From Dehalococcoidia bacterium (GTDB lineage: Bacteria; Chloroflexota; Dehalococcoidia; Bin125), in the NCBI GenBank assembly GCA_022828105.1, contig JAJEJC010000001.1:109471-173470 (forward strand): a stretch of DNA of 64,000 nt, written 5' to 3'. The position numbers and the translations under genes were made by a program. This document shows positions 25,978-53,756 of the stretch, one piece after another. Numbering within the stretch: position 1 is the first letter of the stretch; the number at the start of each line of letters is the position of its first letter. The notes below the pieces were generated by a model that did not search any database, was not told the DNA's origin, and saw only the letters and a program-made list of their open reading frames with translations.

Positions 25978-27468
25978 ATGTGGGGAGCCCTGATGAGGCT
26001 CCTGCGCGGCGGGCCCGATCCGCGGATCGAGGCCACGCTGGAAGCCGAACGCATCATGCAACAGGCCCGCGAACGGGCCGATCGCGAGGCGAGTGAGCGG
26101 CTACAGCAGGCGCAGGAGCAAGCCCGAACGGAACGCGACGAAATCCTGGCCGACGTGCGCGGCGCGCGCGACGACCTGCAGCGGGCAGTGGACCGCTTGG
26201 ACCGGCGCGAGTCGTCGTTGGACGATCGCGCCCGCTCGCTGGAAGAGCGAGACGACAACCTGAATCGCGACCGTGAACGGCTGGATCGCCGCAGCGCCCA
26301 GCTAGACGAGCGCGAAGCGGAGCACGACCGGCGGCTGGAAGAGGTATCCAACTTCACACGGGACGAAGCGCGCACTGTGCTCTTCGAGCAGGTCGAACAG
26401 GAGATCTCCGACGAGGCGAGCCGGCTCGTCCGCGAGGCCGAGCAGAAGGCCAAGGACGACGCGGACGCCCGCGCCCGCAAGATCGTGGCTACCGCCATCC
26501 AGCGCGTCGCCTCCGAGGTCACGACCGAGTCGACCGTCTCAATCGTCCAGATCCCCTCGGACGAAATGAAGGGCCGAATCATCGGTCGCGAGGGACGCAA
26601 CATTCGCGCCCTGGAGTCCGCGCTCGGCTGCGATCTGATCATTGACGACACGCCGGATGTCGTGACCGTCTCCGGCTTCGACCCGGTGCGCCGCGAAGTC
26701 GGCCGCCTGTCACTGAGCCGGCTGGTCTCCGACGGCCGCATTCATCCCACGCGGATCGAGGAGACGGTCGCCAAGGCCCAGCGGGACGTCGACCGAATCA
26801 TCCGCGAGTCGGGCGATGAGGCCGCCATTGAAGCGCACTGCAGCGGTCTCCCGCGCGAGATGCTTGACATCTTCGGCCGCCTCCGCTTCCGCACCAGCTA
26901 CGGCCAGAATCAGCTCCGCCACGCGGTCGAGACCGCGCACATTGGCGCGATGATCGCACAGGAGCTTCACGCCGACGTTGAAATCACACGGCGCGGCTCG
27001 CTGCTGCACGATGTGGGCAAGGCGATCGACCACGAGGTCGAGGGCACGCACGCAATCATTGGCGGCGACCTCGCCCGCCGCTTCAAGATGTCGGAGGAGA
27101 TCGCCCATTGCATCGAAGCGCACCACGACGAAGTTGAGCTGCGCACGGTCGAAGCGATCATCGTGCAGATGGCCGACGCCATTTCCGGCGGACGCCCCGG
27201 CGCGCGGCGCGAGTCGGTGGAACGCTACATCGAGCGCCTGCGCTCGCTTGAGGACATTGCGACATCGTTCGAGGGCGTGGGCCAGGCCTACGCAATCCAG
27301 GCCGGCCGCGAAGTGCGCGTCGTGGTTGACCCTCGCGAGGTCGATGACCTTGGCGCGATGCGGCTGGCGCGCGACATCTCGAAGCAAATCGAGGAGTCGC
27401 TGCAGTATCCCGGCCAGATTCGCGTCACCGTCCTGCGCGAAACCCGCGCGGCGGAGTACGCGCGATAG
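25978..27468 (+). CDS. rny: ribonuclease Y
   Basis: Coiled-coil N-terminus, KH domain (IPSDEMKGRIIGREGRNIRALE) and HD domain (HDVGKAIDHE...AHHDE). The N-terminal TM anchor is absent. Confidence 0.93.
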   Translation: MWGALMRLLRGGPDPRIEATLEAERIMQQARERADREASERLQQAQEQARTERDEILADVRGARDDLQRAVDRLDRRESSLDDRARSLEERDDNLNRDRERLDRRSAQLDEREAEHDRRLEEVSNFTRDEARTVLFEQVEQEISDEASRLVREAEQKAKDDADARARKIVATAIQRVASEVTTESTVSIVQIPSDEMKGRIIGREGRNIRALESALGCDLIIDDTPDVVTVSGFDPVRREVGRLSLSRLVSDGRIHPTRIEETVAKAQRDVDRIIRESGDEAAIEAHCSGLPREMLDIFGRLRFRTSYGQNQLRHAVETAHIGAMIAQELHADVEITRRGSLLHDVGKAIDHEVEGTHAIIGGDLARRFKMSEEIAHCIEAHHDEVELRTVEAIIVQMADAISGGRPGARRESVERYIERLRSLEDIATSFEGVGQAYAIQAGREVRVVVDPREVDDLGAMRLARDISKQIEESLQYPGQIRVTVLRETRAAEYAR

Positions 27469-29245: not shown

Positions 29246-29322
29246 GGCCCCGTGGTGTAGCGGCCTAACACGCCACCCTGTCAAGGTGGAGATCGGCGGT
29301 TCGAATCCGCTCGGGGTCGCCA
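29246..29322 (+). tRNA. tRNA-Asp (anticodon GTC), CCA encoded
   Basis: Hand-folded cloverleaf. Acceptor GGCCCCG/CGGGGTC, D-stem GTGT/ACAC, anticodon stem CCACC/GGTGG with loop CTGTCAA (GTC), T-arm GGCGG-TTCGAAT-CCGCT, discriminator G, CCA. Confidence 0.9.
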
Positions 29323-32873: not shown

Positions 32874-35372
32874 TCAGTCAACGGCCACCCTCTCGCCGGC
32901 CCGCACATCGTCCATCGTCCCGCTGATGCCCCGTTCGACCAGCGAGCGGTACTCCGCCTCGGTCATCCCCAACTCCTGGGCAAACACCTCGAACGAGTGT
33001 TGGCCGACGCATGGCGACGGCCTGAGCTGCCGATCTTCCGACCCGCTGAATCGCCACGGCGCGCCCGGCAGCCACGACGGTCCGACCTCGGGATGCTCGA
33101 CCGACTGCACGAATCCGTTGGCCAGGTAGAGCGGGTCGGGCTCCATGAACTGCTCGTACGGCTTCGCCACCCGTGCGGCGTCCATGCCGAGCTCCAGGAG
33201 TCGGCGCTCCACGGAGTCCGCAGGTTGAGACGAGGTCCAACCGCCGATGATCTCGTCAAGCGCCGACTCGTTGCGTTTGCGAGATGCGGCGTCCATGAAT
33301 CGCGGATCAGCCGCCAGTTCGTGCGCCCCCAGTTCGAGACAGAGGGACGTCCACTCGGACTCGCTGCCGACCGCAATCGCGACCCACTCGTCGTCGCCCG
33401 CGCAGGGGAAGACGTTGTGCGGCGCGCGCTCACGGTCGCGATTGCCGAGCGGGACCGGCAAGCGGCCGGTGGCGTCGTACTCGGCGATCGCGTCGCCGAC
33501 GACCACGCCCATCGCCTCAAGCATGGCCACGTCGATCCGTTGTGGTCCGCCGACTCGTTCGCGGCGAGCCAGCGCGGCGATCACGGCCGCGGCCATCGCA
33601 TAGCCGGAGATCGAGTCGGGATACAGGCCGCCCGTATTCATGCCCGGGTCGCCGTCGTAGCCGTGGATCGAGGACAGTCCCGACATCGGTTCGGTCGTCG
33701 CGCCGTTGGCAGGATAGGCGGAGAAGGGTCCGGTCACGCCGTAGCCCGAGATCGAGGCAAGGATCACGTCGGGGCGCCGTGCGGCCAACGCGTCCAGGGT
33801 GATCCCCCAGCCGTCCAGCACGCCGGGCCGGAAATTCTCGCAGACGACATCGAAGTTCGGCATCATGCGCCAAAAGATGTCCTTGCCCTCGTCGGTGTTC
33901 AGATCGAGCGTGATTCCGCGCTTGTTCAGATTGACCGCGTTGTAGACCCCCTGCGTGTTCTCGGGATGTTGCGTCTTCGACTCGTCCAGGACCGCCTTGC
34001 CGACCCAGGGCCGCAGCAGCCGCCAGATGTCGATCCGACGCAGCGCTTCGATCTGCACCACGTCCGCGCCCAGGAATCCCAGCAGCTCCGTGCCAAACGT
34101 CCCGCTCCACGCCTGCGTGAAGGTCAGGATGCGGATGCCGTCGAGCGGACCGTTCGAGGTCGGCGGTGAGCCCCCCACTGCCTTCGGCATCTCCCCCCGC
34201 TTCGCGGGGGGAGAGCGGCGATCCTGGTCCGCTCCCAGCCTTGGCGCCGGCGATCCTTGCGACCAGCTTGGCGGGGAGATCGGATGCAGATCGCCCGACG
34301 CGCGCACCGTCCGCCCCTCGATCTCTGTCTCGACGATGAACCCGCGCGATTGCAACTGTTCGTTTTCGACCAGCTCCGGAATCGTCTGCAGCACCCCGGA
34401 GATGCAGCGCAGCGCGGCCAGTCTGTGGAACAGCGGCCACTTCTGCATCGCCGGCAGCTCGCGAGCCACGCCCGCCACGACGGCGGTCAAGTCCTGCGAG
34501 TAGCGTTGGTTGCGCGCCTGCAACTCCTCGCGCGCGCCCTGGTCGGGCAGATTGAACAGCGCCATCGCCTCGCGCCAGTTGTGCCAGTCGCCGAAGCCAA
34601 AGTTCATCCGCCCGTCGGCGGCGTCCCAGAGCGGTCCCGGCTCGCCGCGAGGCCGGCCGCCGGTCGCGCCGCGCGACCAGCCGCTGCCCTGGTAGATCGC
34701 GCCGATGGTCCAGGGGTAGACGGTGTGCGTCATCGCCTCAATCTCGCGGACATCGACCAGTTCAGGAGCGGCAGACTCGGAGCGACGACGCAAGGCAGCG
34801 GTCGCGGCGACGAACGCGGCGAGTCCGCCCATGTAGCCGAACTGGCGCGAGGGCAGCGAGAGCGGTGGCTCGTCCTGGAGTGCGTTCACGTGCGCCCAGC
34901 CGCAGCGCGCATTCAGCGTCAGGCTGCTGCCCGGCGCATTCGCCATCGGACCTTCCAGTCCATAGGGCGTGACCGAGAGATGAACCGCGTCGGGCCGCAT
35001 CGCCGTAAGCGGCCAATCCGAGAGCGCGCTCGGGCCATCGGTCGTCACCACCACATCGGCCGCGGCGATCCACGGCTCGGACTCTGCCTCGTCGGCGATT
35101 ACGACCGAGCGCTTGCCCCAGTTGACGTAGGCGTGCAGCGCCGAGCGCTCGACGCCGGCTTGGTCGTCGAGGAAGGGCGCTTCATGCCGGAGCGGATGAC
35201 CCTCGGGCGGCTCCAACATCACCACCTCTGCGCCGTGGTCGGCGAACAGCCGAGCCGCGAACGCTCCCGACATCCGCCGCGACAGGTCAACCACCAGCAG
35301 GCCGTCGTAAGCGGGAACAAGCTCCTCGGTCATTGCGTCGCTCACCCAATGCTCAGTGTGATTCAGCATCAC
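32874..35372 (-). CDS. tandem-fused family III (CaiB/BaiF) CoA-transferase, two complete domains in one 832-aa ORF
   Basis: Domain 1 (LVVDLSRRMSGAFAARLFADHGAEVVMLEPPEG) and domain 2 (IRILTFTQAWSGTFGTELLGFLGADVVQIE) are each about 400 aa. The linker contains a repeat-element copy in frame. Confidence 0.82.
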   Translation of the reverse strand: MMLNHTEHWVSDAMTEELVPAYDGLLVVDLSRRMSGAFAARLFADHGAEVVMLEPPEGHPLRHEAPFLDDQAGVERSALHAYVNWGKRSVVIADEAESEPWIAAADVVVTTDGPSALSDWPLTAMRPDAVHLSVTPYGLEGPMANAPGSSLTLNARCGWAHVNALQDEPPLSLPSRQFGYMGGLAAFVAATAALRRRSESAAPELVDVREIEAMTHTVYPWTIGAIYQGSGWSRGATGGRPRGEPGPLWDAADGRMNFGFGDWHNWREAMALFNLPDQGAREELQARNQRYSQDLTAVVAGVARELPAMQKWPLFHRLAALRCISGVLQTIPELVENEQLQSRGFIVETEIEGRTVRASGDLHPISPPSWSQGSPAPRLGADQDRRSPPAKRGEMPKAVGGSPPTSNGPLDGIRILTFTQAWSGTFGTELLGFLGADVVQIEALRRIDIWRLLRPWVGKAVLDESKTQHPENTQGVYNAVNLNKRGITLDLNTDEGKDIFWRMMPNFDVVCENFRPGVLDGWGITLDALAARRPDVILASISGYGVTGPFSAYPANGATTEPMSGLSSIHGYDGDPGMNTGGLYPDSISGYAMAAAVIAALARRERVGGPQRIDVAMLEAMGVVVGDAIAEYDATGRLPVPLGNRDRERAPHNVFPCAGDDEWVAIAVGSESEWTSLCLELGAHELAADPRFMDAASRKRNESALDEIIGGWTSSQPADSVERRLLELGMDAARVAKPYEQFMEPDPLYLANGFVQSVEHPEVGPSWLPGAPWRFSGSEDRQLRPSPCVGQHSFEVFAQELGMTEAEYRSLVERGISGTMDDVRAGERVAVD
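34158..34205 (+). repeat. REP/MITE-like element copy inside the CoA-transferase inter-domain linker (GAGCCCCCCACTGCCTTCGGCATCTCCCCCCGCTTCGCGGGGGGAGAG)
   Basis: Translated in frame as ...SPPAKRGEMPKAVGGSPP... between the two CoA-transferase domains. Confidence 0.8.
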
Positions 35373-41982: not shown

Positions 41983-43194
41983 TCAGTTGCGGAAGATCGC
42001 CGAAGAGATAGGCGCAGAGGCTGGGCCTGCCGCGACGATGCAGGTCCGCGCGCCTTCGACCGGAGTGGTGGAGTCGCCGCGCAACTGGCGCACCGCCTCG
42101 ACGGCGAGGTTGAATCCGTGCGTGTAGGCCTCGGCGAGATTGCCGCCCGAGGTGTTGATCGGGAACTCGCCCGCATGCGGCGCGCTCGGATCGGCGACCT
42201 GCCTCGCCTCCAGCCGGCCGCCCTCGCAGAACGGTCCGCCTTCGCCGACCGCGCAGAACTTGTGATCCTCGAACGAGGTCAACACCTGACCGGTGAAGTT
42301 CTCGTAGAACTGGCCGCAGTCAATCTCGTCGGGTCCCATGCCGGCTGCCGAGTAGAGCCGATCGACCATCGTCGTGTAGTTCGAACTCATGAAATCGTCG
42401 TGCCAGAAGCCGTCGACGACATTGCCCTGGCGGTGCCCGGATCCCTGCACCGACGCGGCGAGGTAGACCGGCGTGTCGGTGAAGTCCTTCGCGATCTCGG
42501 CCGTGGTCAGGATCATGGCTGCCGCGCCGTCGGTCTCGAGGCAGCAGTCATAGAGGCGGTAGGGGTCGGCGATCATCCTGGAGTTCTGGTGGTCTTCCAG
42601 CGTGATCGGCCGTCCGTTCATTACAGCGCGAGGATTGTTCTGGGCATGCTTGTTGGCGGCGACGGCGATCTGTCCGAGTTGCGCCGAGGTCGTGCCGTAC
42701 TCATGCATGTGGCGCTGCATCTTCATCGCGAGGAACTGCGCGGGCGACATCAGACCTTGCGGCACGTTGAAGGCGTACTGGCCGCGCAATCGACCGCCGC
42801 GGCGCGACTGACCGAAGCGACCGAACTCGCCCTGCGCCAGCGCCCGATAGACGACCACGAAGTTGGCGTAGCCGGCAACGATCCCGGCCGCCGCGTTGCC
42901 GATTGCGGCGCAAACGCCCCCGCCGCCACCGCCGTAGACCATCGAGGCGAAGGCGTAGTGGGGCAGATCCAGCGCGGTCGAGAGGCGGTTGGGGTCGTTG
43001 CGGTCGGCCGAGTAGGAGGAGAAGCCGTCCAACATCCGAGGTTCGAGTCCCGCGTCGGCACAGGCGGCGAGAATTGCCTCGAGCGCCAGGCGAAACTCCG
43101 GGCGGCCGACCCGGCCGTGCTTCGTGTACTCGGTCTCGCCGACACCGATCACGGCTACGCGGTCGCGGATGTTGCGGTCGTACTCGTATGCCAT
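41983..43194 (-). CDS. thiolase-like protein (SCP-x / DUF35-associated lipid-transfer type)
   Basis: MAYEYDRNIRDRVAVIGVGETEY...GGGGGGVCAAIGNAA...PINTSGGNLAEAYTHGFN. The start is ATG 43192-43194; the 941-aa track ORF is a GC-driven upstream extension. Confidence 0.85.
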   Translation of the reverse strand: MAYEYDRNIRDRVAVIGVGETEYTKHGRVGRPEFRLALEAILAACADAGLEPRMLDGFSSYSADRNDPNRLSTALDLPHYAFASMVYGGGGGGVCAAIGNAAAGIVAGYANFVVVYRALAQGEFGRFGQSRRGGRLRGQYAFNVPQGLMSPAQFLAMKMQRHMHEYGTTSAQLGQIAVAANKHAQNNPRAVMNGRPITLEDHQNSRMIADPYRLYDCCLETDGAAAMILTTAEIAKDFTDTPVYLAASVQGSGHRQGNVVDGFWHDDFMSSNYTTMVDRLYSAAGMGPDEIDCGQFYENFTGQVLTSFEDHKFCAVGEGGPFCEGGRLEARQVADPSAPHAGEFPINTSGGNLAEAYTHGFNLAVEAVRQLRGDSTTPVEGARTCIVAAGPASAPISSAIFRN

Positions 43195-43278
43195 GTCAGC
43201 CTCCCTCGACTCAGAGGAGGGTAGGCGATCGCTCGGGGCTATCCTCAACTCGCATTCCTTCAGAGAGGGAGTTTCGAC

Positions 43279-44571
43279 ATGACCGACTTTGCCAACCTGC
43301 CCGTTGCCGAACCTGCGTCGTTGGGGATCGATCCTGATCGGCTTGCCCGCACCGATGCGCGCATGGCTCAGGCGGTCGAGAACCGCGAAGTGCCCGGCGT
43401 GGTGACCGTGTTGATCCGGCACGGACACCTTGCCCACGTCTCGGCGCACGGCTACCTCGACGCCGGACGGGAGACTCCCTTGCCGTTCGACGCGCTGTTC
43501 CGCATGTACTCGCAGACCAAGCCGGTCACGGCGGCGCTGACGATGCAGTTGCAGGAAGAGGGCGTCTTCTACGTCGACGAGCCGATCACGAAGTGGCTGC
43601 CTGAGTTCGAGCATCGGCAGGTGCTGGCCCCGTTCGATCCGCCCAACAAGGTGCGCGGCGAGGGTCTGCTGATGGGTCAGACGGTACCGATGACAAGGCA
43701 GATCACGATTCGCGATCTGCTGACGATGACCTCGGGTCTGCCTTCGTTCAGCAACATTCCCTCGGCGATGTTCCCGATGCTCGAACCGGCCTGGAGCGGG
43801 ACGGAGTTCGGCATCACCAATCCGGGCGTCGTCGATACGTCGGTTTCGGCGGAGACGCGCGTGCTGCAGATGGCGCAGTTGCCCAACGCGAGGCAGCCAG
43901 GCGCGGCCTGGGAGTACGCCGCCGACTTCGACGTGCTGACCCTGCTGCTCGAACGCGCCGCTGGTCAGAACCTCGACGCGCTGTTCCAGGAGCGTATCTT
44001 CGGCCCGCTCGGGGTCGAAGGCTGCGGCTTCTATTGCCCGCCCGAGGACGCCGATCGCCTCGTCACCAACCACCACTGGTCCGAGACGGACGCGCTCAAC
44101 CCTGTGGAGCGTCCCGAGGACTCGCACAAGGTGCGTGAGTCGGTGGGGCAGCAGATCTCCGGCAACGGCCTCTACGGAGGCGTTTTGATGACGCCTGCGG
44201 CCTACACACGATTCGCCGCGATGCTGCTCAACGGCGGCGAGCTTGACGGTCAGCGCGTGCTGGGTCGGAAGACGATCGAGCTGATGACCTCGAATCATCT
44301 CGGCGCGATTTGCGGCACCGAAATCGACCTGACCGGCCCCGGTTACGGCTTCGGTTTCGGCTACGCGGTCCGCGACCGGATTGCGGGGACGGCCTACCCG
44401 GGCAGCATCGGCACCTACGGCTGGGGCGGCGCGGCGGGGACGTGGTTCTTCGTCGACCCGTCCGAGAACCTGGCCGGCCTCTTCTTCACCCACGTCTTCA
44501 TGTACCAGTTCAACCCGGCCGCGTACCTGGAGACGGACTTCGAGAAGGGCGTCTACGAGGCGTTGATGTAG
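43279..44571 (+). CDS. beta-lactamase/transpeptidase-like serine hydrolase (class C / esterase family)
   Basis: SQTK (SxxK), a PF00144-like architecture and C-terminal GWGGAAGTWFFVDP. Confidence 0.85.
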   Translation: MTDFANLPVAEPASLGIDPDRLARTDARMAQAVENREVPGVVTVLIRHGHLAHVSAHGYLDAGRETPLPFDALFRMYSQTKPVTAALTMQLQEEGVFYVDEPITKWLPEFEHRQVLAPFDPPNKVRGEGLLMGQTVPMTRQITIRDLLTMTSGLPSFSNIPSAMFPMLEPAWSGTEFGITNPGVVDTSVSAETRVLQMAQLPNARQPGAAWEYAADFDVLTLLLERAAGQNLDALFQERIFGPLGVEGCGFYCPPEDADRLVTNHHWSETDALNPVERPEDSHKVRESVGQQISGNGLYGGVLMTPAAYTRFAAMLLNGGELDGQRVLGRKTIELMTSNHLGAICGTEIDLTGPGYGFGFGYAVRDRIAGTAYPGSIGTYGWGGAAGTWFFVDPSENLAGLFFTHVFMYQFNPAAYLETDFEKGVYEALM

Positions 44572-45654: not shown

Positions 45655-46827
45655 TCAGTCCCCGATGGTCCGGGTTGGGAAGTCCCTGGCGGGGTGGGCT
45701 TTAAGGACTTCTTCGTCGAGGTCGATGCCGAGGCCGGGGGTTGTGGGGAGGGCGATGTGGCTGTCTTCGACCTGGAAGGCGGGTGTGGCGGCCTGTTGGC
45801 CCCAGGGTTCGAAGTTGACGAAGTACTCGGTGATGATGAAGTTGGGCATCGTGGCGGCGGCGTTGAGGGTTGAGGCGAGGGCGACGGTGGTCGAGTTGTA
45901 GTTGTGCGGGGCGACGGCGACGAAGTAGACCTCCGCCATAGCGGCGATTTCGGTCAGTTCCTTGATCCCGCCGACGTTGGCGACATCGGGGTTGATGATC
46001 TCGGCGGCGCGCTGCTCGAAGGCCTCGCGGAATTCGAACTTGGTGTAGAGCTCCTCGCCGGTGACGGTTGGGATGTTGATCTGCGCGGTGGCGGCGGCGA
46101 GGGCGGTCATGTTCTCGGCCCAGACCGGCTCCTCGAACCAGAACGGCTCGTACTCCTCGACCATCTGCGAGAGTCGGACGGCGTTGGACGGGCTGAGGCG
46201 GCGGTGGATTTCCAGCAGCACGTCGACGTCGGGTCCGACGGCCTCGCGCACAGCGCGCACGCGCTCGGCGGCGAGGCGGAGTTCCTTCATCCCGACGTAG
46301 CTCCGCCACTTGCCGGGCACGGGGTCGAACTTGAGGGCGGTGAAGCCTCGCTCGACCATGGCGCGTGCGCGGGCCTGGAGCTCATCGATGTCATCCATCC
46401 TGGCCCAGCCGTTGGCGTAGACGCGCAGCCGATCGCGGACCGCGCCGCCGAGGAGCTGGTGGACGGGCAGGCCCGCGCGCTTGCCGGCCAGGTCCCACAT
46501 TGCCTGTTCGACGCCGGAGACGGCGGAGTAAAGGTCCATCGCGCCGCGGCGGTTGCCGAAGTCGTTGTAGATCGCGTCAGTCCAGGGCTTGATCCGGGCG
46601 GCGTCCCAGCCGACGATGTAGCGCCGCATGGCGTCGAGGTGGGCGGTGATCTGGATGTCGCGGTCGGACTGGGTGTAGCACTCGCCCCAGCCGTGCAGAC
46701 CGTCGGCGGTTTCGAGTCGGACGAAGCAGAGGTTCTTGCCGGCGATGTAGCGGTCGGGCTGGCCGCTGTCCGGCGCGGTTGGGTGAACGAGGTAGTAGCG
46801 CAGGTCGACGATGGTGGAGTCGGTCAT
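45655..46827 (-). CDS. enolase-superfamily enzyme (mandelate racemase / muconate lactonizing enzyme family dehydratase)
   Basis: MR/MLE N- and C-terminal domains (KFDPVPG...LLEIHRRL...FEEP...). The start is ATG 46825-46827; the upstream part of the track ORF is a translated repeat. Confidence 0.86.
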   Translation of the reverse strand: MTDSTIVDLRYYLVHPTAPDSGQPDRYIAGKNLCFVRLETADGLHGWGECYTQSDRDIQITAHLDAMRRYIVGWDAARIKPWTDAIYNDFGNRRGAMDLYSAVSGVEQAMWDLAGKRAGLPVHQLLGGAVRDRLRVYANGWARMDDIDELQARARAMVERGFTALKFDPVPGKWRSYVGMKELRLAAERVRAVREAVGPDVDVLLEIHRRLSPSNAVRLSQMVEEYEPFWFEEPVWAENMTALAAATAQINIPTVTGEELYTKFEFREAFEQRAAEIINPDVANVGGIKELTEIAAMAEVYFVAVAPHNYNSTTVALASTLNAAATMPNFIITEYFVNFEPWGQQAATPAFQVEDSHIALPTTPGLGIDLDEEVLKAHPARDFPTRTIGD

Positions 46828-46878
46828 TGGGGGCTCGCAATCAGTTGGGGCCGGGTCGCTCATACGATATCGGCGTGT

Positions 46879-46938
46879 GGGGCAGCCCCCCTCTGCCTTC
46901 GGCATCTCCCCCCGCCTGACGGCGGGGGGAGAGGGGAA
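46879..46938 (+). repeat. GC-rich REP/MITE-like element, canonical copy (GGGGCAGCCCCCCTCTG-GCCTTCGGC-ATCTCCCCCCGCCTGACGGCGGGGGGAGAGGGGAA)
   Basis: Seen directly; located upstream of the enolase-superfamily gene. Confidence 0.85.
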
Positions 46939-47101
46939 TAGGCGGGGACGCGGGAGGGCGGTCCGCGCCGACATCGTGGTCGTCAAGCGGGCACGGGGCG
47001 CTGAAGAGCGCGTCGTAGAGCAGGCGCTGGCGGTCGGTTGGAAAAAACGGCGTTCAGCGTGCAGCTGCTCGACTACGCCCCGCAGCGGCCAATCTGCGGG
47101 A

Positions 47102-47476
47102 TTAGGGCGGTTCATCATCGTCATGGTTGGAGCCGTCCTCGTCTTCCGGTTCGTCGCTGGCGATGCCGAAGTGCGCTTCGGCGCGTGCGATTTCTTCTTC
47201 GGTCGGGGGCGAGCCGTTCTGAATCTCAACGACCCGTTTGTAGCCGGGGCTGATCTCCTCGGGGACTTCATTGGCGTCGTTGTGCAAGGCCGCGCGGGCG
47301 GTGTCGTAGGCGAGCCTGGCTTCGTAGTGGGCCTGGGCGTAGAGACCCTTGATGTGGGCGAGGGCTTTGGTGGCGCTGTGCTGGACGTAGGCGGGGCCGT
47401 TGGTGGCCTGGTGTCGGAGTTGGTCGATGATGGCGTCGTTGGTGAAGGGGAGGGGTGGGTTGGCGGCATGGGACAT
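47102..47476 (-). CDS. hypothetical small protein with an acidic C-terminal tail
   Basis: MSHAANPPLPFTND...ASDEPEDEDGSNHDDDEPP, with GGAG 10 nt upstream of ATG 47476. It lies co-directionally immediately downstream of the nuclease gene. Confidence 0.4.
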   Translation of the reverse strand: MSHAANPPLPFTNDAIIDQLRHQATNGPAYVQHSATKALAHIKGLYAQAHYEARLAYDTARAALHNDANEVPEEISPGYKRVVEIQNGSPPTEEEIARAEAHFGIASDEPEDEDGSNHDDDEPP

Positions 47477-47570
47477 GAGGTGAACTCCTGCTCGTGGTGT
47501 CAGGGGTTCGATCTTATGCACACTGGTGTTCGATGTGGGGTGTGAGGGTGTGGTGGGGTTGACTGGAGGA

Positions 47571-48537
47571 CTATTCATGTGTGATCGAGACGCTGTCGTT
47601 GGCGACGATGATGAAGTTGGTGGAGCCGGGGATGACGCGCCCGTCGCGCTCGGCGTAGGCGAGCCAGCGGACGCCGCTCCACTTCCAGAGCGCGGCGACG
47701 CTGTAATCGGTCAACAGCGAGAAGAGATAGGCCGCGGTCCAATGCGGGGCTGACTCGAGGGACGGAGTGGGGACGGAAGCCGCGGATTCGCCGGTCCGAG
47801 CGCTGCGGAGGGAGATGGGTGCGGTTGTTGCGTCGGAAGACGTTGACGTGGTGGTCTGGCTGTCCTGGTCCACCGTGATGGCGGCGCAATCACGGGCCAG
47901 TGCCGCTTCATTAGCCAGGCGCTCCGCGGGATCGATCAACAGTCCGTAGTTTGCCTTGACCTGGATGGTGATCGTGGCAATGTGCTTGCGCTGGGCGCAA
48001 CTGCCGCCGCTCCACTCAGCGAGATCATGGTCGGATTTGCTGATGTTGGTACTGGCCAGCAGACACCATTGATTGAGCGGATCGTTGGCGAACTGGCGCT
48101 TTTGGGCGGCGGTCCAGGTCGAGGCGCTGGAATCGTAGGCTTCCTTCAGGGCGACGATGTGATCGACGTGTTCGGATGAAGCGCAGCCGAGGCGGGCACG
48201 GGCGGCGCTGGAGTTGTAACTCCAGTTGTCGCGGTCGTAGCCGGTGGAGGAGGTGGGGCCTGTGCCTGAGGATCCGGTCGATGTACCAGGCCAAAGCGGG
48301 TTGGATTCGCAGCCGACGCCGTCTCCGTCGCGGTCGTGTCCATGACCATCGATCACCTTGTAGGGATAGTGGCTGGCGCAGTTGCCGTCAGCCGAGATAT
48401 GCGCTACCCCCCCCCCCCCCACTTAACGATGCGTTTACAAAGGCAGCCATTCCGGCGACGAGCCCGACGCCGACGAGCAATGCAAGACGAACTGTGCGGG
48501 GTCGGCTGATGTTTGCGCGTGCGTGGCTGCTGACCAT
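47571..48537 (-). CDS. secreted Excalibur + DUF1524/HNH-like nuclease, interrupted by a frameshift at a G14 homopolymer
   Basis: The 5' frame (48537-48421) encodes the Sec signal peptide MVSSHARANISRPRTVRLALLVGVGLVAGMAAFVNAS-LSGGGGG and stops at 48388. The +1 frame from 48422 encodes GGGGVAHISADGNCASHYPYKVIDGHGHDRDGDGVGCE (Excalibur DxDxDGxxCE), then EHVDHIVALK...NDPLNQW...NISKSDHD (His-Me finger). Tract 48407-48420. Confidence 0.7.
48407..48420 (-). repeat. homopolymeric tract (G)14 on the coding strand at the signal-peptide/mature-protein junction
   Basis: Fourteen consecutive C on the plus strand. A tract length of 13 or 16 would restore one ORF. Confidence 0.95.
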
Positions 48538-48628
48538 GTTGTGCTCCGGTTGGTTTGAGGGACGTTTAGGGAAGCATCGCACAGGATTGGGTCGTCTGTT
48601 GTGCGGTTGACTTGGGTGCCGCGTGAGC

Positions 48629-48720
48629 GGGGAGCCCCCCTCTGTCCCCTGCCTACGCAGGGGCAGGCTCCTACGGGACATCTCCCCCCGCCTGACAGCG
48701 GGGGGAGAGGGGAAGGGGGG
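48629..48720 (+). repeat. REP/MITE-like element, long variant with nested hairpins (GTCCC[CCCTGC-CTAC-GCAGGG]...GGGAC, then CATCTCCCCCCGCCTGACAGCGGGGGGAGAGGGGAAGGGGGG)
   Basis: Seen directly in the divergent intergenic region between the nuclease gene and the 48749 gene. Confidence 0.85.
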
Positions 48721-48748
48721 ACTGCGGCTAACTGTTAGGGTGCGGGCC

Positions 48749-49228
48749 ATGTCTTTGTTTGAGTCCTCCCAGTGTGAGTTTGAGACTGCGTTTCAGCTTC
48801 TTCCGGAGATCAGCCCGGAGGCGCCGGACTGGGGCGGTCGGTTCCGTCGGGAGATGCCGTCGGTCCCGTCGCCGTACTACGGGGTCAATGTGGTGGACGT
48901 TCGGCGGGAGCACTACGACGCCGTGTTCCAGAACATCCAGGGCCAGGTGCAGGGCGCGGAGCAGCTATTCGGCGGGCGGCTGCATTTCTTTTCGGCGACG
49001 GACTACGGGGAGATCCGGCGCGTCATCTTCATCATCTACTTCGAGAGCTTTCCCGCGACCGAGAGCGTGCTTGAGATGCTGCGCGCAGGCGGAATGGATG
49101 TGGGCGACGACGCGAGCGAGATTCCCGACATCTGGACAGGGTTCGACCTCTGGACCGATTTCACTCGTCTAGCGGAGGGCTATACGTGGTGGATCGCGCC
49201 TGCGATGGCGGAGCACGAGTCGCCGTAG
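48749..49228 (+). CDS. hypothetical cytoplasmic protein (about 160 aa)
   Basis: ATG 48749 (MSLFESSQCEFETAFQLLPEISPEAPDWGGRF...). No family recognised. The track ORF extends upstream into the repeat. Confidence 0.5.
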   Translation: MSLFESSQCEFETAFQLLPEISPEAPDWGGRFRREMPSVPSPYYGVNVVDVRREHYDAVFQNIQGQVQGAEQLFGGRLHFFSATDYGEIRRVIFIIYFESFPATESVLEMLRAGGMDVGDDASEIPDIWTGFDLWTDFTRLAEGYTWWIAPAMAEHESP

Positions 49229-49355: not shown

Positions 49356-49415
49356 GGGGGAGCCCCCCTCTGTCACTACGTGACATCTCCCCCCGCCTTC
49401 GGCGGGGGGAGATGG
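49356..49415 (+). repeat. REP/MITE-like element (GGGGAGCCCCCCTCTG-TCACTACGTGA-CATCTCCCCCCGCCTTCGGCGGGGGGAGATGG)
   Basis: Located between convergent genes (48749 gene and the vWA gene). Confidence 0.85.
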
Positions 49416-49426
49416 AGCCGAGCGGG

Positions 49427-51280
49427 TTAGCCGGCGTAACCGGGGTCTTCGGATTGGCGCTCCTCGGCGACGGCGCCCATGGCCTGGAGGAGCTGGGCGA
49501 AGTCGCGGCCTGCCTGTGAGTCGAGGATGGTCGCCGGGAGATCTCGATATCGCCGGGCGATCTCGTTGAGGTTTTCGGCAGCGAGTTCCATCGTTTCCCG
49601 ACTCAAGCCGTCCTGACCGAACCAGCTATAGCGGTCGGCGGCGAGGGCGACGACTGTGCCGAGGTCGAGCAGGTCGTCGTCGCCGAAGCGCGAGACGGCG
49701 CTGATCATCTCCACCTGCTGGCGGTTCGACTCTTCCGACATCGGCGTCAGCCAGCGCAGCTCGATCTCACCGAGATCTACGACGTCGTCGTTTAGCGCAT
49801 CGCCGGTCAGTTCGACCTCGTAGAAGATGGTCGTGGCCGAGCCCATCGGGATCTCTGCGAACTCCCGGCGGTCCTGTTCAAAGTTGCGGTCGGCGGTGAC
49901 CCGGTTCTCGTAGCCGACGAGACGCCAGCCGGCGACGGCGTGTTCGTCCCAGCGGACCTGGGCGCGGGCCTGGTCGGCGAATGGGACCGAGAGTGCGAGC
50001 CAGTTCTCGCGGCTGAAGGTTGAGCGGGCCTGATCAACGTCCTGTAGATAGCGGTACCAGCCGTTGCCGTACTGGGCGAGCTGTTCGAGCAGCACGTCGT
50101 TGTAGTTGGCGATGCCCACGCCGACCGTGATCAGTCGTAACGGGTTGGAGTCGTTGCGATCTTCGGCCGTGCGCAGAATGGTGAACGGGTCGGTGGCGTC
50201 GACGTTGGCGACGCCGTCGGACATGAGGATCACGTAGTTGTAGGCGTCGGGCCGCTCGCGGCGGATGTCGTCGGCGAGTTCGACGCCGAGGTTGAGTCCG
50301 GCCTGGACATTGGTGGAGTCGAGCGGCGTCAACCGGTCGATGACGCGCTGGATGCCGCGGTCGCCCGGGCGCTCGTGCCTGGCGTGGTCGACGATGCCGT
50401 TGGAGAAGAGCACGACGGCAATGCGGTCGTCGTCGCCGAGCCCGCGGCGGATCGATTCGGCCGCAGCGCGGGCAATCTCGACGCGGTTGCCGTCGCGCAT
50501 GGAACCGGAGGAGTCAAGCACGAGAGTGACGTTGAGCGGGGTGTTGTCGACGAACTCGGGCGCCTGCGTGGCGATGCGGACGAGGTGGAGGTCGTCGTTG
50601 AGCGGGTGCTCGACGATGTCGGCGGTGACGGCGAAGCTGTCATCGACATCGGGACCGTCATAGCGGTAGTTGAAGGCGTTGATCCATTCCTCGGCGCGGA
50701 CCAAGGCGGGATCGATGGCATAGCCGTTCTGGACCCAGTTGAGGGCGAGGAAGTACGAGGTGCGGTCGACGTCGAGGGAGAAGGTGGAGGTGTCGTCCTG
50801 GTCGGTGTCGCGCCAGCCGAGGGTCGGATAGTCCTCGAAGTTGGTCGCACCGGGTCGGGGACGGAGAGTGACCTGCTCCTGTTCGTCCTCCGGGTATGGC
50901 CCGCCGGAGTTGGGGAAGGCGGCGCTGCTATCCTCCTCCGCTTCCTCCTGCATGGCCTGTGCTTGGGCCTGTTCTTGGGCCTGTTCTTGGGCCTGCTGCT
51001 GCATGGCCTGCTCTTGCTGCTGCATGGCCTGCTGTTGTTGCTGCACGGCCTGCTCTTGCTCTTGCTGGTACTGGACATGCTGGGGTTGCTGGGATTCCTG
51101 TTGCTGCGCCTGCGCGACCGCGGTCGGCTGCTCCGCTTGCGGCTCGGCCTGCTGGACGGACTGCCGGGCGTCCTGATCGTCGCTGCACGCCGCGAGCAGG
51201 ATGGCGGCGGCGATGATCGGCAGGGCGATTGCTGCGGCGCTGCGTTTGAGGAATCTGCGGGTTCGCTGGATCGTTGTCAT
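49427..51280 (-). CDS. lipoprotein with a Gln-rich low-complexity linker and a von Willebrand factor A domain (YfbK-like)
   Basis: Signal peptide plus lipobox (ILLAAC) and the MIDAS motif DSSGSM (VTLVLDSSGSMRDGNRVE). The linker is AVQQQQQAMQQQEQAMQQQAQEQAQEQAQAQAMQEE. Confidence 0.8.
   Translation of the reverse strand: MTTIQRTRRFLKRSAAAIALPIIAAAILLAACSDDQDARQSVQQAEPQAEQPTAVAQAQQQESQQPQHVQYQQEQEQAVQQQQQAMQQQEQAMQQQAQEQAQEQAQAQAMQEEAEEDSSAAFPNSGGPYPEDEQEQVTLRPRPGATNFEDYPTLGWRDTDQDDTSTFSLDVDRTSYFLALNWVQNGYAIDPALVRAEEWINAFNYRYDGPDVDDSFAVTADIVEHPLNDDLHLVRIATQAPEFVDNTPLNVTLVLDSSGSMRDGNRVEIARAAAESIRRGLGDDDRIAVVLFSNGIVDHARHERPGDRGIQRVIDRLTPLDSTNVQAGLNLGVELADDIRRERPDAYNYVILMSDGVANVDATDPFTILRTAEDRNDSNPLRLITVGVGIANYNDVLLEQLAQYGNGWYRYLQDVDQARSTFSRENWLALSVPFADQARAQVRWDEHAVAGWRLVGYENRVTADRNFEQDRREFAEIPMGSATTIFYEVELTGDALNDDVVDLGEIELRWLTPMSEESNRQQVEMISAVSRFGDDDLLDLGTVVALAADRYSWFGQDGLSRETMELAAENLNEIARRYRDLPATILDSQAGRDFAQLLQAMGAVAEERQSEDPGYAG
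50950..51110. repeat. in-frame tandem DNA repeats (GGCCTGTTCTTG x3; CTGCATGGCCTGCTCTTGCTG x2) encoding the Q-rich linker
   Basis: Seen directly. Confidence 0.8.
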
Positions 51281-51390: not shown

Positions 51391-51566
51391 GGGGCGGGGC
51401 GCCCCCTCTGTCACTACGTGACATCTCCCCCCTGGAAGGGGGGAGAGGCAGACGGATGCCCTCCCCCCCCCGGCATGGAGGCGGGGGGAGATGCCGAAGG
51501 CAGACGGATGCCATCTCCCCCCGCCTGACGGCGGGGGGAGACGCCGAAGGCAGAGGGGGTTCGCCT
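51391..51566. repeat. nested array of at least three REP/MITE-like units in alternating orientation
   Basis: GCCCCCTCTGTCACTACGTGACATCTCCCCCCTGGAAGGGGGGAGAGGCAGACGGATGCC...GGAGGCGGGGGGAGATGCCGAAGGCAGACGG...CATCTCCCCCCGCCTGACGGCGGGGGGAGACGCCGAAGGCAGAGGGGG, in the divergent intergenic region between the vWA gene and the ThuA-like gene. Confidence 0.85.
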
Positions 51567-53696: not shown

Positions 53697-53756
53697 GGGG
53701 AGCCCCCCTCTGTCTCTACGAGACATCTCCCCCCGCTTCGCGGGGGGAGAGGGAAC
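53697..53756 (+). repeat. REP/MITE-like element (GGGGAGCCCCCCTCTG-TCTCTACGAGA-CATCTCCCCCCGCTTCGCGGGGGGAGAGGGAA)
   Basis: Located between two co-directional genes. Confidence 0.85.

Follow-up and report, generated by a model that had tools for sequence, protein, structure and literature searches.

A poly-G tract in the leader of a predicted exported nuclease as a probable phase-variation switch in an apparently sponge-associated Chloroflexota bacterium

The locus and its encoded protein

The window, the whole 64-kb stretch of DNA analysed here (65.7% GC), carries on its minus strand a nuclease gene split by a candidate hypermutable tract, an uninterrupted G14 homopolymer (48407..48420, minus strand; C14 on the plus strand), with ...GTAAACGCATCGTTAAGT before it and TAGCGCATATCTCGGCTGACGG after it. 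Sequence reading confirmed the run of exactly 14 G at 48420-48407 reported by the initial annotation, and translation confirmed the signal-peptide-like ORF that had been described as starting at ATG 48537 and ending at 48388, five codons past the tract. As assembled, in the OFF state, this 5' reading frame (48388..48537, minus strand) opens at ATG 48537-48535, reads MVSSHARANISRPRTVRLALLVGVGLVAGMAAFVNASLSGGGGGSAYLG up to its stop, and is made up of the start codon, an n-region (RPRTVR), a hydrophobic core (LALLVGVGLVAGMAAFV), the tract, five out-of-frame codons following the tract's last codon (GGT), and the closing TGA (48390-48388). A GGAG motif 6 nt before the ATG (48544..48547, minus strand) resembles a Shine-Dalgarno sequence and may function as one.

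The reading frame of the mature protein (47571..48407, minus strand; VAHISADGNC...) begins with the last G of the tract and continues for 278 codons to TAG 47573-47571, intact and without a second lesion; the ORF list carries it as a frame of 283 aa at 47571-48422. In silico, tracts of 13 or 16 G joined leader and nuclease into one protein, as first proposed, with a length of 321 or 322 aa and not the 320 aa given then, which was off by one. Tracts of 12, 14 or 15 G led to early stops and no continuous protein, so that in these translations a change of a single repeat unit toggles between the full-length and the truncated product. The ON frame reads G14 as four Gly codons and the first base of a Val codon (G/TA). 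This G/TA junction is conserved: read in the ON frame it specifies Val, and at tract lengths divisible by three it gives a TAA or TAG stop straight away, as in the related locus L095.

The tract is positioned between the hydrophobic core and a conserved A-x-A cleavage motif, in a putative Sec-type leader whose features (RPRTVR and then the core) were recognised by inspection. The motif itself, I-S-A (48390..48398, minus strand), is of the -3/-1 A-x-A type and, judged from the alignment, a predicted signal-peptidase I site, with cleavage between 48390 and 48389, just ahead of a conserved D/H-G-x-C. Alignments of 22 and of 102 sequences both show the corresponding pattern, [AVI]-x-[AG] before the cut and [DH]G after it, to be conserved, in 22 to about 90 sequences. 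Cleavage at 48390/48389 would place the poly-Gly stretch inside the removed leader. Six conserved Cys residues fit an exported protein; secretion and leader cleavage are both predictions, the alternative being an uncleaved signal anchor.

Downstream of the leader, the initial annotation had named a His-Me-finger nuclease core and an Excalibur motif in the +1 frame. The former was borne out by Pfam: the GmrSD_C domain (formerly DUF1524, PF07510; residues 113-174, 48015..48200, minus strand), with EHVDH, ANDxxN and NxSKSD in succession, scored 25.1 bits against a cut-off of 23, within the range of its homologues (23.7-30.4 bits). An alignment of 22 sequences showed no variation at nine residues (E122, H123, D125, H126, N151, N155, N164, K167 and D169), to which individual catalytic roles may be assigned by inference, and the encoded nuclease would presumably act as a DNase. 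The latter stood as a motif, DRDGDGVGCE (residues 68-77 of the 321-aa protein; 48306..48335, minus strand), an Excalibur-like and putatively Ca-binding loop that is invariant in the alignment, but not as a Pfam assignment at this locus, where PF05901 reached 18.3 bits, under the cut-off of 22, and only model positions 23-36 (the DxDxDGxGCE end) were matched. Homologue P0006 passed the same model at 26.3 bits, and many homologues carry precomputed PF05901 matches. The C-terminal part (residues ~240-321; 47574..47819, minus strand) is a beta-rich domain by alignment and AlphaFold (pLDDT 60-76), with conserved W..W..Y and PGS and no Pfam match; other subclades have a different repeated C-terminal module in its place.

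AlphaFold modelled the core with a pLDDT of 72-87, as strands at residues 122-126 and 156-160 followed by helices, in a whole model of moderate confidence (mean pLDDT 56.5). The top seven Foldseek matches in the PDB were all secreted nucleases of the Vvn/endonuclease I type (probability 0.96-0.99), with weak statistics (E values of 0.06-0.17, and TM-scores of 0.23 when normalised to the query and of 0.34 when normalised to the target). A PDB sequence search with the family profile returned no relative, only a spurious 20-residue match to beta-lactoglobulin, and an NCBIfam scan of the protein returned no family. Identity with a GmrSD type IV restriction enzyme was ruled out: unlike those enzymes, the protein has no DUF262/ParB-like domain (no DUF262 match was found), it carries a hydrophobic leader and an Excalibur-like motif N-terminally and is predicted to be exported, and the neighbouring genes are unrelated.

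An ORF of 124 aa with a D/E-rich tail lies downstream of the nuclease gene (47102..47476, minus strand), and a small acidic ORF is similarly placed 3' of the nuclease in L002 and L094 (17-31% identity). Its product is a possible partner or inhibitor of the nuclease, its membership of the unit being uncertain; Pfam and PHROGs scans of the small flanking ORFs, this one included, returned nothing. On the other side, 144 nt upstream of the start codon, a REP-like perfect palindrome, TCTCCCCCCGC-CTGACA-GCGGGGGGAGA (48681..48708), occurs in six exact copies in the window where none are expected; it is context, outside the switch. An origin of the tract from these C6/G6 palindromes was rejected, since the flanks of the tract lack similarity to the element and its codon position is fixed in the family. 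A promoter and terminator scan of 47000-48900 gave no sigma-70-like promoter and terminator-like matches at chance level, and an Rfam scan of the window gave a single tRNA (29246-29319).

Within the window, the G14 is the sole homopolymer longer than 9. There are none of 7 or 8 and one of 9, a G9 at 51463-51471 that is intergenic and part of a repeat element, and Tandem Repeats Finder (TRF) detected no further candidate phase-variable repeat across the window. Under an independent-base model, 0.018 G/C runs of at least 14 are expected in 64 kb, in agreement with the earlier judgement that such a run is improbable by chance. The same model predicts 37 runs of at least 7 against the 2 present, which indicates that the genome avoids long runs and makes the G14 a strong outlier. 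Codon bias was ruled out as a source of the poly-G by Gly codon usage: within the tract every Gly codon is GGG, whereas in the remainder of these genes GGG makes up 16% of them.

Tract length in a sister sample and in related loci

A sister sample from the same study (ENA KELL22-1_SAMN22237339 scaffold_115, here L099) carries the same region. Over 20,966 nt (window 37571-58537) the two sequences show 0 mismatches and a single 1-nt gap, located at the tract, which is G13 in L099 and G14 in the window; the G9 at 51463-51471, used as a control run, has equal length in both. The protein encoded by L099 (P0121) is exactly the repaired 321-aa protein, its N-terminus matching the 5' ORF and its residues 44-321 being 100% identical to the mature frame of the window. 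A difference of 13 versus 14 between sister samples is also what a consensus miscall of +/-1 at a long G run would produce. The two sequences belong to BioSamples SAMN22237338 (window) and SAMN22237339 (L099); by the study to which the contig name code points, probably BioProject PRJNA768976 (Kelly et al. 2022), the data are probably NovaSeq 2x150. A miscall of +/-1 at the window's own G14 is the alternative that is still to be reckoned with.

An uninterrupted tract of G9 to G24 was found at the same codon position in eleven other loci (ten distinct sequences, 44-73% amino acid identity), six of them in frame and five out of frame. The ON alleles are G14 in L002 and L003 (two independent assemblies) and in L004, G16 in L005, G10 in L096 and G13 in L098; the OFF alleles are G24 in L001 and L094, G9 in L095 (GGG GGG GGG TAA) and L097, and G12 in L100. 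The tract is on the coding strand in every locus that bears it. Clusters of proteins at 90% identity contained G9, G12 and G13 tracts and Gly counts of 3 to 5, and their members added further Gly-count variants and out-of-frame N-termini; through in-frame length changes, relatives carry 3 to 6 Gly. The orthologues are single genes and not two separate ones, the latter being an arrangement that had been named as evidence against a switch. Gene callers split or mis-start the nuclease gene in about half of the assemblies, giving false N-termini such as MDCSPRSRRCFGCNHSVKRGGG... and MCGGCAERRKDGHEDHRQVG..., which is a practical lesson for annotation.

Not all of these alleles are equally trustworthy. 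Both G24 alleles lie on long-read-style contigs, one of them at 4x coverage, and their frames are therefore unreliable. The OFF alleles with G12 and with G9, the latter seen in two short-read datasets independent of each other, come from short-read-style assemblies (SAMN12290844, SAMN12291159 and SRR18249256), and at tracts this short miscalls are unlikely. L002 and L003 are 23 SNPs apart, yet both have G14, so point mutations can at times outpace changes in tract length; selection for the ON state could be a cause.

Homologous loci of 80 other genomes, ~500 kb altogether, contained a single run of at least 8, at an unrelated site, and among 71 non-Chloroflexi loci, mostly actinobacterial, a homopolymer tract was absent from the corresponding site. 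The nearest GTDB representatives, sponge-type Chloroflexi/Dehalococcoidia MAGs with at most 61% identity that served as a negative control, were all without the tract, and in a rough NJ tree its distribution was patchy, some close relatives lacking it. The metagenome contigs searched yielded 7 loci, none of them close. No relative of the nuclease was found among the viral contigs searched, and the family is thus not evidently phage-borne. Terminase genes adjoin the nuclease in L002/L003 and in L094.

Fourfold-site identity between subclades is 0.27-0.47, compared with 0.31 expected at saturation. Across this near-saturated synonymous divergence, the tract has been kept at the orthologous site beyond neutral expectation. 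In all OFF loci the mature frame can be read from end to end, a second lesion being absent from each of these alleles. Values of dN/dS were 0.19-0.36 with OFF alleles included, and 0.31 for the OFF-OFF pair L095/L097, a pattern by which OFF alleles remain under purifying selection.

Proposed slipped-strand switching and its rivals

The tract recurs at the same site in relatives, where its length differs and leaves the gene in frame in some and out of frame in others, and is therefore most likely a slippage-driven on/off switch. We consider the locus to be, with good probability, a translational phase-variation (contingency) switch operating by slipped-strand mispairing in the leader of an exported nuclease. 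Phase variation had been suggested from the window alone and now gains comparative support from the G13 of the sister sample, the tracts of the orthologues, the saturated divergence across which they persist and the purifying selection on OFF alleles. At G/C tracts of at least 8 in Neisseria, Campylobacter and Haemophilus, high-frequency slippage is established. By the mechanism proposed here, slipped-strand mispairing during replication would add or remove G residues; lengths of 13 or 16 (3n+1, to which 10 also conforms) would put leader and nuclease in one frame and allow export of the enzyme (ON), whereas at 14 G, as assembled, translation would end after 49 codons and no exported nuclease would be made (OFF). 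With the poly-Gly stretch in the cleaved part of the leader, in-frame length changes would be tolerated because the stretch is removed with it, and the tract could stay long and mutable. By analogy with known tracts, switching at the locus would be frequent and reversible.

The bacterium appears to be a sponge-associated, Dehalococcoidia-type member of the Chloroflexota and a host-associated symbiont. The earlier description of the genome as of a non-pathogen type needs qualifying in this respect, as contingency loci are expected in such a lifestyle. Our guess is that the payoff would lie in toggling between degrading and sparing extracellular DNA, or in varying an exposed protein seen by the host or by phage. 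In a more tentative extension, to which we lean less than to its contrary, this would be an old contingency locus of uncultivated sponge-symbiont Chloroflexota, selected for mutability itself across lineages with saturated synonymous sites, through which a mutualist bet-hedges nuclease secretion. Recombination among strains living together would exchange its 5' end, as in the L004/L005 mosaic, which would mark a diversifying interaction factor, exposed to host, phage or competitors, and not a housekeeping one, and OFF alleles might be leaky through RNA-polymerase or ribosome slippage.

Foremost among the rival explanations is that sequencing or assembly went wrong at the homopolymer wherever an OFF state was called, the real sequence being an in-frame G13 that encodes flexible poly-Gly without meaningful switching. 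One G makes up the whole difference between the window and the sister sample, every platform is error-prone at long G runs, the two G24 OFF alleles derive from the long-read-style contigs described above, and six of the eleven related loci, together with several cluster members, are in frame. Against this, the OFF state also occurs at G9 and G12, where consensus errors are improbable, and a plain poly-Gly linker would not remain 100% GGG at near-saturated synonymous divergence. PCR stutter tends towards contraction, whereas the window is +1 relative to the ON allele. Even if the window's own tract were miscalled, a coding G13 would be expected to slip at high frequency. We regard error as an unlikely account of the locus.

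Less probable still is recoding, by which RNA-polymerase or ribosomal slippage would yield in-frame product at any tract length, at a reduced level, the tract serving to tune dosage. Transcriptional slippage at homopolymers is established, mainly for A/T runs (background in PMC3711429). Tracts of at least 10 exceed the RNA:DNA hybrid, so that realignment would carry no base-pair cost, and purifying selection on OFF alleles would also follow from continued expression. Slippage at G/C runs is, however, less documented than at A/T runs, and the family conserves no fixed frameshift: most orthologues are in frame and lengths run from 9 to 24, unlike programmed sites. Recoding would in any case add leakiness to DNA-level phase variation, not replace it.

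That the window copy is a pseudogene, a dispensable nuclease gene decaying after a frameshift, would accord with the gene being split as assembled and with the truncation of some family members on short contigs. We rejected this very improbable reading on dN/dS, which is about 0.2-0.3 for OFF alleles, and on the lack of second lesions, here over 278 downstream codons; apart from the tract, the copy does not differ from the sister sample's ON allele, and the site of the lesion is precisely the tract that is kept, at varying length, across the clade. Most improbable of all is a structural role, in which the run, for instance as a G-quadruplex or as a promoter of R-loops on the sense strand, would modulate transcription or translation with only incidental effects on frame. 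Intramolecular G-quadruplexes are in principle possible at 14-24 G, and all the tracts lie on the coding strand; but G9 and G10, which keep the same position, fall short of what a stable three-tetrad quadruplex needs, and the conserved G/TA junction (Val or immediate stop) points to reading-frame logic.

Relation to known nucleases and phase-variable systems

The endonuclease I family (Vibrio Vvn, V. cholerae Dns, E. coli EndoI; PF04231), which comprises exported, disulfide-containing, non-specific His-Me-finger nucleases, provides the best structural matches to our model, at the weak Foldseek E values given above, and differs from the protein in that Pfam places the latter in GmrSD_C (PF07510) and not in Endonuclease_1. 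Dns is regulated by quorum sensing, not by a repeat tract. Nucleases of the endonuclease I family limit the uptake of foreign DNA and are active only after export (PMC5714182). The same source recognises a subgroup of DUF1524 proteins as 'putative extracellular nucleases'. With actinobacterial DUF1524 and Excalibur nucleases ('HNH endonuclease family') the protein shares a PF07510 core, a hydrophobic leader at the N-terminus and an Excalibur-like, putatively Ca-binding motif; in our protein this motif precedes the core, while PMC5714182 gives its position as C-terminal.

Our literature search found no paper tying repeat-mediated phase variation to Chloroflexota, sponge symbionts or an extracellular nuclease. 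This is the first case that we could find of such a switch in Chloroflexota or sponge symbionts, the mechanism itself being known, mainly from pathogens; what is understood of phase variation at repeats comes almost wholly from cultivable pathogens and commensals. If the interpretation is correct, the strategy also operates in an uncultivated, high-GC, beneficial animal symbiont, and a secreted nuclease would be a factor under fluctuating selection in the sponge. The tract would then offer a marker by which ON/OFF ratios could be scored in existing metagenomic reads across hosts, tissues and time.

As in the phasomes of Campylobacter jejuni and Helicobacter, where intragenic G/C homopolymers of ~8-13 nt occur in mixed ON/OFF assemblies (PMC6321876, PMC8437040, PMC2823697), the tract is conserved at the orthologous site and polymorphic in length between strains. 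The genomes in question are low in GC and carry dozens of tracts, the majority in genes for surface glycans, unlike the 66% GC genome considered here, which otherwise avoids runs longer than 6 and has one coding tract in 64 kb. Homopolymer frameshift switching in high-GC bacteria outside the classical mucosal pathogens has a parallel in Mycobacterium tuberculosis glpK, with reversible frameshifts at a 7C homopolymer in a high-GC genome (mentioned in PMC11868660); that tract differs in being much shorter (7 C) and in lying in the gene of a cytoplasmic metabolic enzyme, not in a leader peptide.

The design has a precedent in pilC of Neisseria gonorrhoeae and N. meningitidis, whose phase variation through homo-guanine tracts in the signal-peptide region is mentioned in PMC5354566, citing Jonsson 1991. 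There, as here, a poly-G tract occupies the leader-coding part of the gene for an exported protein and frameshifts switch it ON or OFF (at our locus, by prediction), the tract being placed in a region absent from the mature protein, where its length is free to vary. The two differ in lineage (Betaproteobacteria versus Chloroflexota), in lifestyle (human pathogen versus sponge symbiont) and in cargo, PilC being a pilus adhesin or assembly factor and the present protein a nuclease. The switching of pilC has been measured experimentally, whereas that of the nuclease is a prediction from sequence.

Reading frames at the tract and the encoded nuclease

A run of 14 G on the minus strand (48420-48407) separates a 49-codon ORF (MVSSHARANISRPRTVRLALLVGVGLVAGMAAFVNASLSGGGGGSAYLG; ATG 48537, stop TGA 48390-48388, GGAG 6 nt 5' of the start) from a frame that opens in the tract and runs for 278 more codons to TAG 47573-47571. 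The initial annotation had described the same split. When the tract was exchanged in silico, 13 G gave a single 321-aa protein and 16 G a single 322-aa protein, one or two residues longer than the 320 aa first proposed, while no single continuous protein resulted from 12, 14 or 15 G. The window has a GC content of 65.7% and contains no homopolymer of length 7 or 8, one of length 9 (intergenic), and the G14. Under an independent-base model 37 runs of at least 7 would be expected against the two observed, and only 0.018 G/C runs of at least 14, which bears out the claim that such a run is very unlikely by chance; the G14 thus stands out strongly from a genome where long homopolymers are otherwise avoided.

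The fused protein scores 25.1 bits (cut-off 23) against Pfam GmrSD_C, a His-Me-finger nuclease domain previously named DUF1524, in agreement with the nuclease core originally placed after the tract. The Excalibur assignment held in part: the loop DxDGDGVGCE is invariant in an alignment of 22 sequences, as are the EHVDH ... ANDxxN ... NxSKSD core and six cysteines, but only the end of the Excalibur model was matched, at 18.3 bits and under the cut-off of 22. An NCBIfam scan of the fused protein returned no match. The AlphaFold model is confident in the core only (residues 100-215, pLDDT 72-87) and moderate in the C-terminal beta domain; its seven best PDB matches are secreted or periplasmic endonucleases of the endonuclease I/Vvn/Dns type (probability 0.96-0.99, with weak E-values of 0.06-0.17). 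In the His-Me-finger classification, the DUF1524 group includes proteins that have an Excalibur domain as well as transmembrane helices and are listed as 'putative extracellular nucleases' (PMC5714182). Identity as a GmrSD restriction enzyme was rejected, since the fused protein lacks a DUF262 domain. At the N-terminus, a basic n-region precedes a hydrophobic core of 17 residues, and a small-x-small motif (ISA, ASA, AEA, ...) is conserved in the family immediately N-terminal to a conserved D/H-G-x-C, suggesting a putative cleavable Sec leader with the poly-Gly within its c-region. All named relatives of the nuclease are Chloroflexota MAGs.

Tract length in a sister sample and in relatives

The window contig corresponds to ENA ERZ23491425 'KELL22-1_SAMN22237338_METAG-scaffold_1' (942,667 nt). 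The 90% cluster holding the 283-aa ORF product has a second member, P0121, which is identical at every residue to the 'repaired' 13-G protein; its gene lies among the same neighbours on scaffold_115 of KELL22-1_SAMN22237339, the adjacent BioSample. Over the 20,966 nt compared (window 37571-58537), the two scaffolds have no mismatch and differ by one gap of 1 nt, at the tract (G13 against G14 in the window), so tract length is their sole difference there; the intergenic G9 has length 9 in both. The same organism is therefore ON, with leader and nuclease in one frame, in SAMN22237339 and OFF in the window, in two independently assembled samples. The study code KELL22-1 probably denotes Kelly et al. 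2022, on Caribbean Ircinia sponge metagenomes (PMC9531527), as judged from the name only, and by the same route the samples were probably sequenced on a NovaSeq 6000 (2x150; PMC9531527). Proteins annotated as 'MAG: ribonuclease Y [Chloroflexi bacterium]' share 96% identity with the RNase Y encoded in the window (25978-27468).

Comparison with orthologs agrees with the contingency-locus reading of the initial annotation: in DNA from the closest homologues and from a second subclade (~44% identity to the window protein), every locus carries a pure G run, from G9 to G24, at the same place, 3' of the hydrophobic core and 5-10 codons 5' of the A-x-A motif. ON lengths are G14 in L002 and L003 (two independent short-read assemblies, with GC directly 5' of the tract) and in L004, G16 in L005, from the same metagenome as L004, G10 in L096 and G13 in L098. 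OFF lengths are G24 in L001 (a long-read-style contig, 4x) and in L094, which shares its metagenome with L004 and L005, G9 in L095 (GGG GGG GGG TAA) and L097, and G12 in L100. Other members of the same 90% clusters have 3, 4 or 5 in-frame Gly or an out-of-frame N-terminus. TA directly follows the tract in all tract loci but L001, so that the ON frame reads G|TA (Val) and a 3n frame meets an immediate TAA or TAG. Within the relative loci (3-7 kb each) the tract is the sole run of at least 8, and 80 loci from other genomes (~500 kb) contain one such run altogether, at an unrelated site. A G tract is therefore conserved in the nuclease gene, and its presence in the window is no accident of assembly.

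A miscall by one base of a 13-14 G run may have occurred in the window assembly; even were its 14 wrong, a 13-G coding tract would be expected to slip often. Homopolymer error as the whole explanation of the OFF states fares less well: the two G24 calls (L001, L094) are unreliable, but OFF states also occur at G9 in two independent datasets and at G12, in short-read-style assemblies, both short-read-style and long-read-style assemblies contain ON and OFF states, and the window allele is +1, whereas PCR stutter favours -1 changes.

In public gene calls, OFF alleles have been given false wrong-frame N-termini such as MDCSPRSRRCFGCNHSVKRGGG and MCGGCAERRKDGHEDHRQVGHRGSPDRRDLWGG (P0002, P0030, P0050, P0067, P0125, P0126), and the calls for P0001, P0123 and P0128 begin at a GTG within the tract; such artefacts of annotation are systematic at the nuclease locus.

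Flanking DNA and recombination

L004 and L005 represent co-resident strains of one metagenome (ERZ21830300; L004 2800-3500) with flanks 98.7-100% identical. Identity falls to only 62-77% over the upstream region, leader, tract and first ~170 nuclease codons, and returns to 100% in the 3' half of the gene; recombination has thus left a mosaic around the 5' end of the nuclease gene. Two lineages have a phage-type gene for the terminase large subunit directly next to the nuclease. These genes are orthologous (64% identity; phrog_2, E 2e-23) and lie at 1593-3029 in L002, 1598-2818 in L003 (off the contig end) and 1489-2880 on the minus strand in L094. They could be what is left of a prophage or GTA; the window has no terminase gene beside the nuclease, and no nuclease relative was found in IMG/VR.

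In three loci (window 47102-47476, minus strand; L002 1298-1642; L094 4394-4732), the nuclease gene is followed by a short ORF (112-124 aa) whose C-terminal tail is strongly acidic. The copies are 17-31% identical, with tails ending in D/E-x-PP in the window and L094, and matched no Pfam or PHROG family; the product could be a partner of the nuclease or inhibit it. Coordinate conversion places a ParD/ParE toxin-antitoxin pair ~2 kb further downstream than the nuclease, beyond an MR_MLE enolase-superfamily gene (window region 42200-43700, from 12953-13518 of L099, the locus on the sister scaffold). About 0.9 kb upstream of the nuclease gene and on the same strand, ORF 49427-51280 (minus strand) encodes a secreted-looking vWA/YfbK_C protein, in which a tandem repeat of period 12/21 (50954-51066) specifies a Gln/Glu/Ala-rich low-complexity stretch near the N-terminus. 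Elsewhere the window holds ordinary chromosomal genes (MurC, FtsW, RNase Y, a biotin carboxylase fusion, a tRNA at 29246-29319).

Intergenic DNA of the window contains REP-like perfect palindromes, TCTCCCCCCGC-loop-GCGGGGGGAGA, at 34190-34214, 46905-46932, 48681-48708, 49386-49412, 51514-51541 and 53726-53750 (6 exact copies against 0 expected; 19 half-sites against ~2), which account for the excess of C6/G6 runs. A tandem array at 51446-51554 includes the G9 (minus strand, 51463-51471). Related elements in L094, L095 and L096 indicate a family common to this Chloroflexota group. Two mechanical minus-strand ORFs overrun real gene starts by crossing REP elements: 45655-47469 (604 aa, against a real 390-aa MR_MLE enzyme gene) and 48388-48750 (120 aa from 48750, against the nuclease start at 48537). 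REP copies, when translated, yield recurrent pseudo-peptides, e.g. 'SPPAVRRGEM'.

Maintenance of the tract and a proposed switch

GGG supplies 41 of 259 Gly codons (16%) outside the tract in the ten tract-bearing genes compared, and 100% within it. At conserved residues, the fraction of fourfold sites identical between subclades is 0.27-0.47, where saturation would give 0.31, so neutral drift would long ago have broken the G run. In a rough NJ tree, tract-bearing genes fall in at least 3 places, and close relatives such as P0020 ('...SGGRLEP') and P0027 ('...SAGSVEP') have no tract; a tree this rough does not separate repeated loss or locking from the transfer of 5' segments, either of which suits the patchy pattern. 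OFF alleles were rejected as pseudogenes, because the mature frame is open over its full length in every OFF locus and pairs that include an OFF allele have an NG86 dN/dS of 0.19-0.36 (0.31 for the OFF pair L095/L097).

We consider it likely that the nuclease locus is genuinely phase-variable. Slipped-strand mispairing would alter tract length, with 3n+1 lengths (10, 13, 16) fusing leader to nuclease for export and other lengths leading to termination within a few codons. Since cleavage would remove the Gly run with the leader, 3-6 Gly would be tolerated and the tract could stay long. Slippage of RNA polymerase or the ribosome could possibly make OFF alleles leaky. Speculatively, and by analogy with Vvn/Dns (PMC5714182), the payoff could lie in controlling extracellular DNA degradation versus DNA availability or, equally speculatively, in varying an exposed protein. 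The mechanism itself is of a known kind, and Neisseria pilC likewise has homo-guanine tracts in its signal-peptide region (PMC5354566); within the searchable literature, its novelty lies in the phylum, the setting in a symbiont, the cargo and how deeply the tract is conserved.
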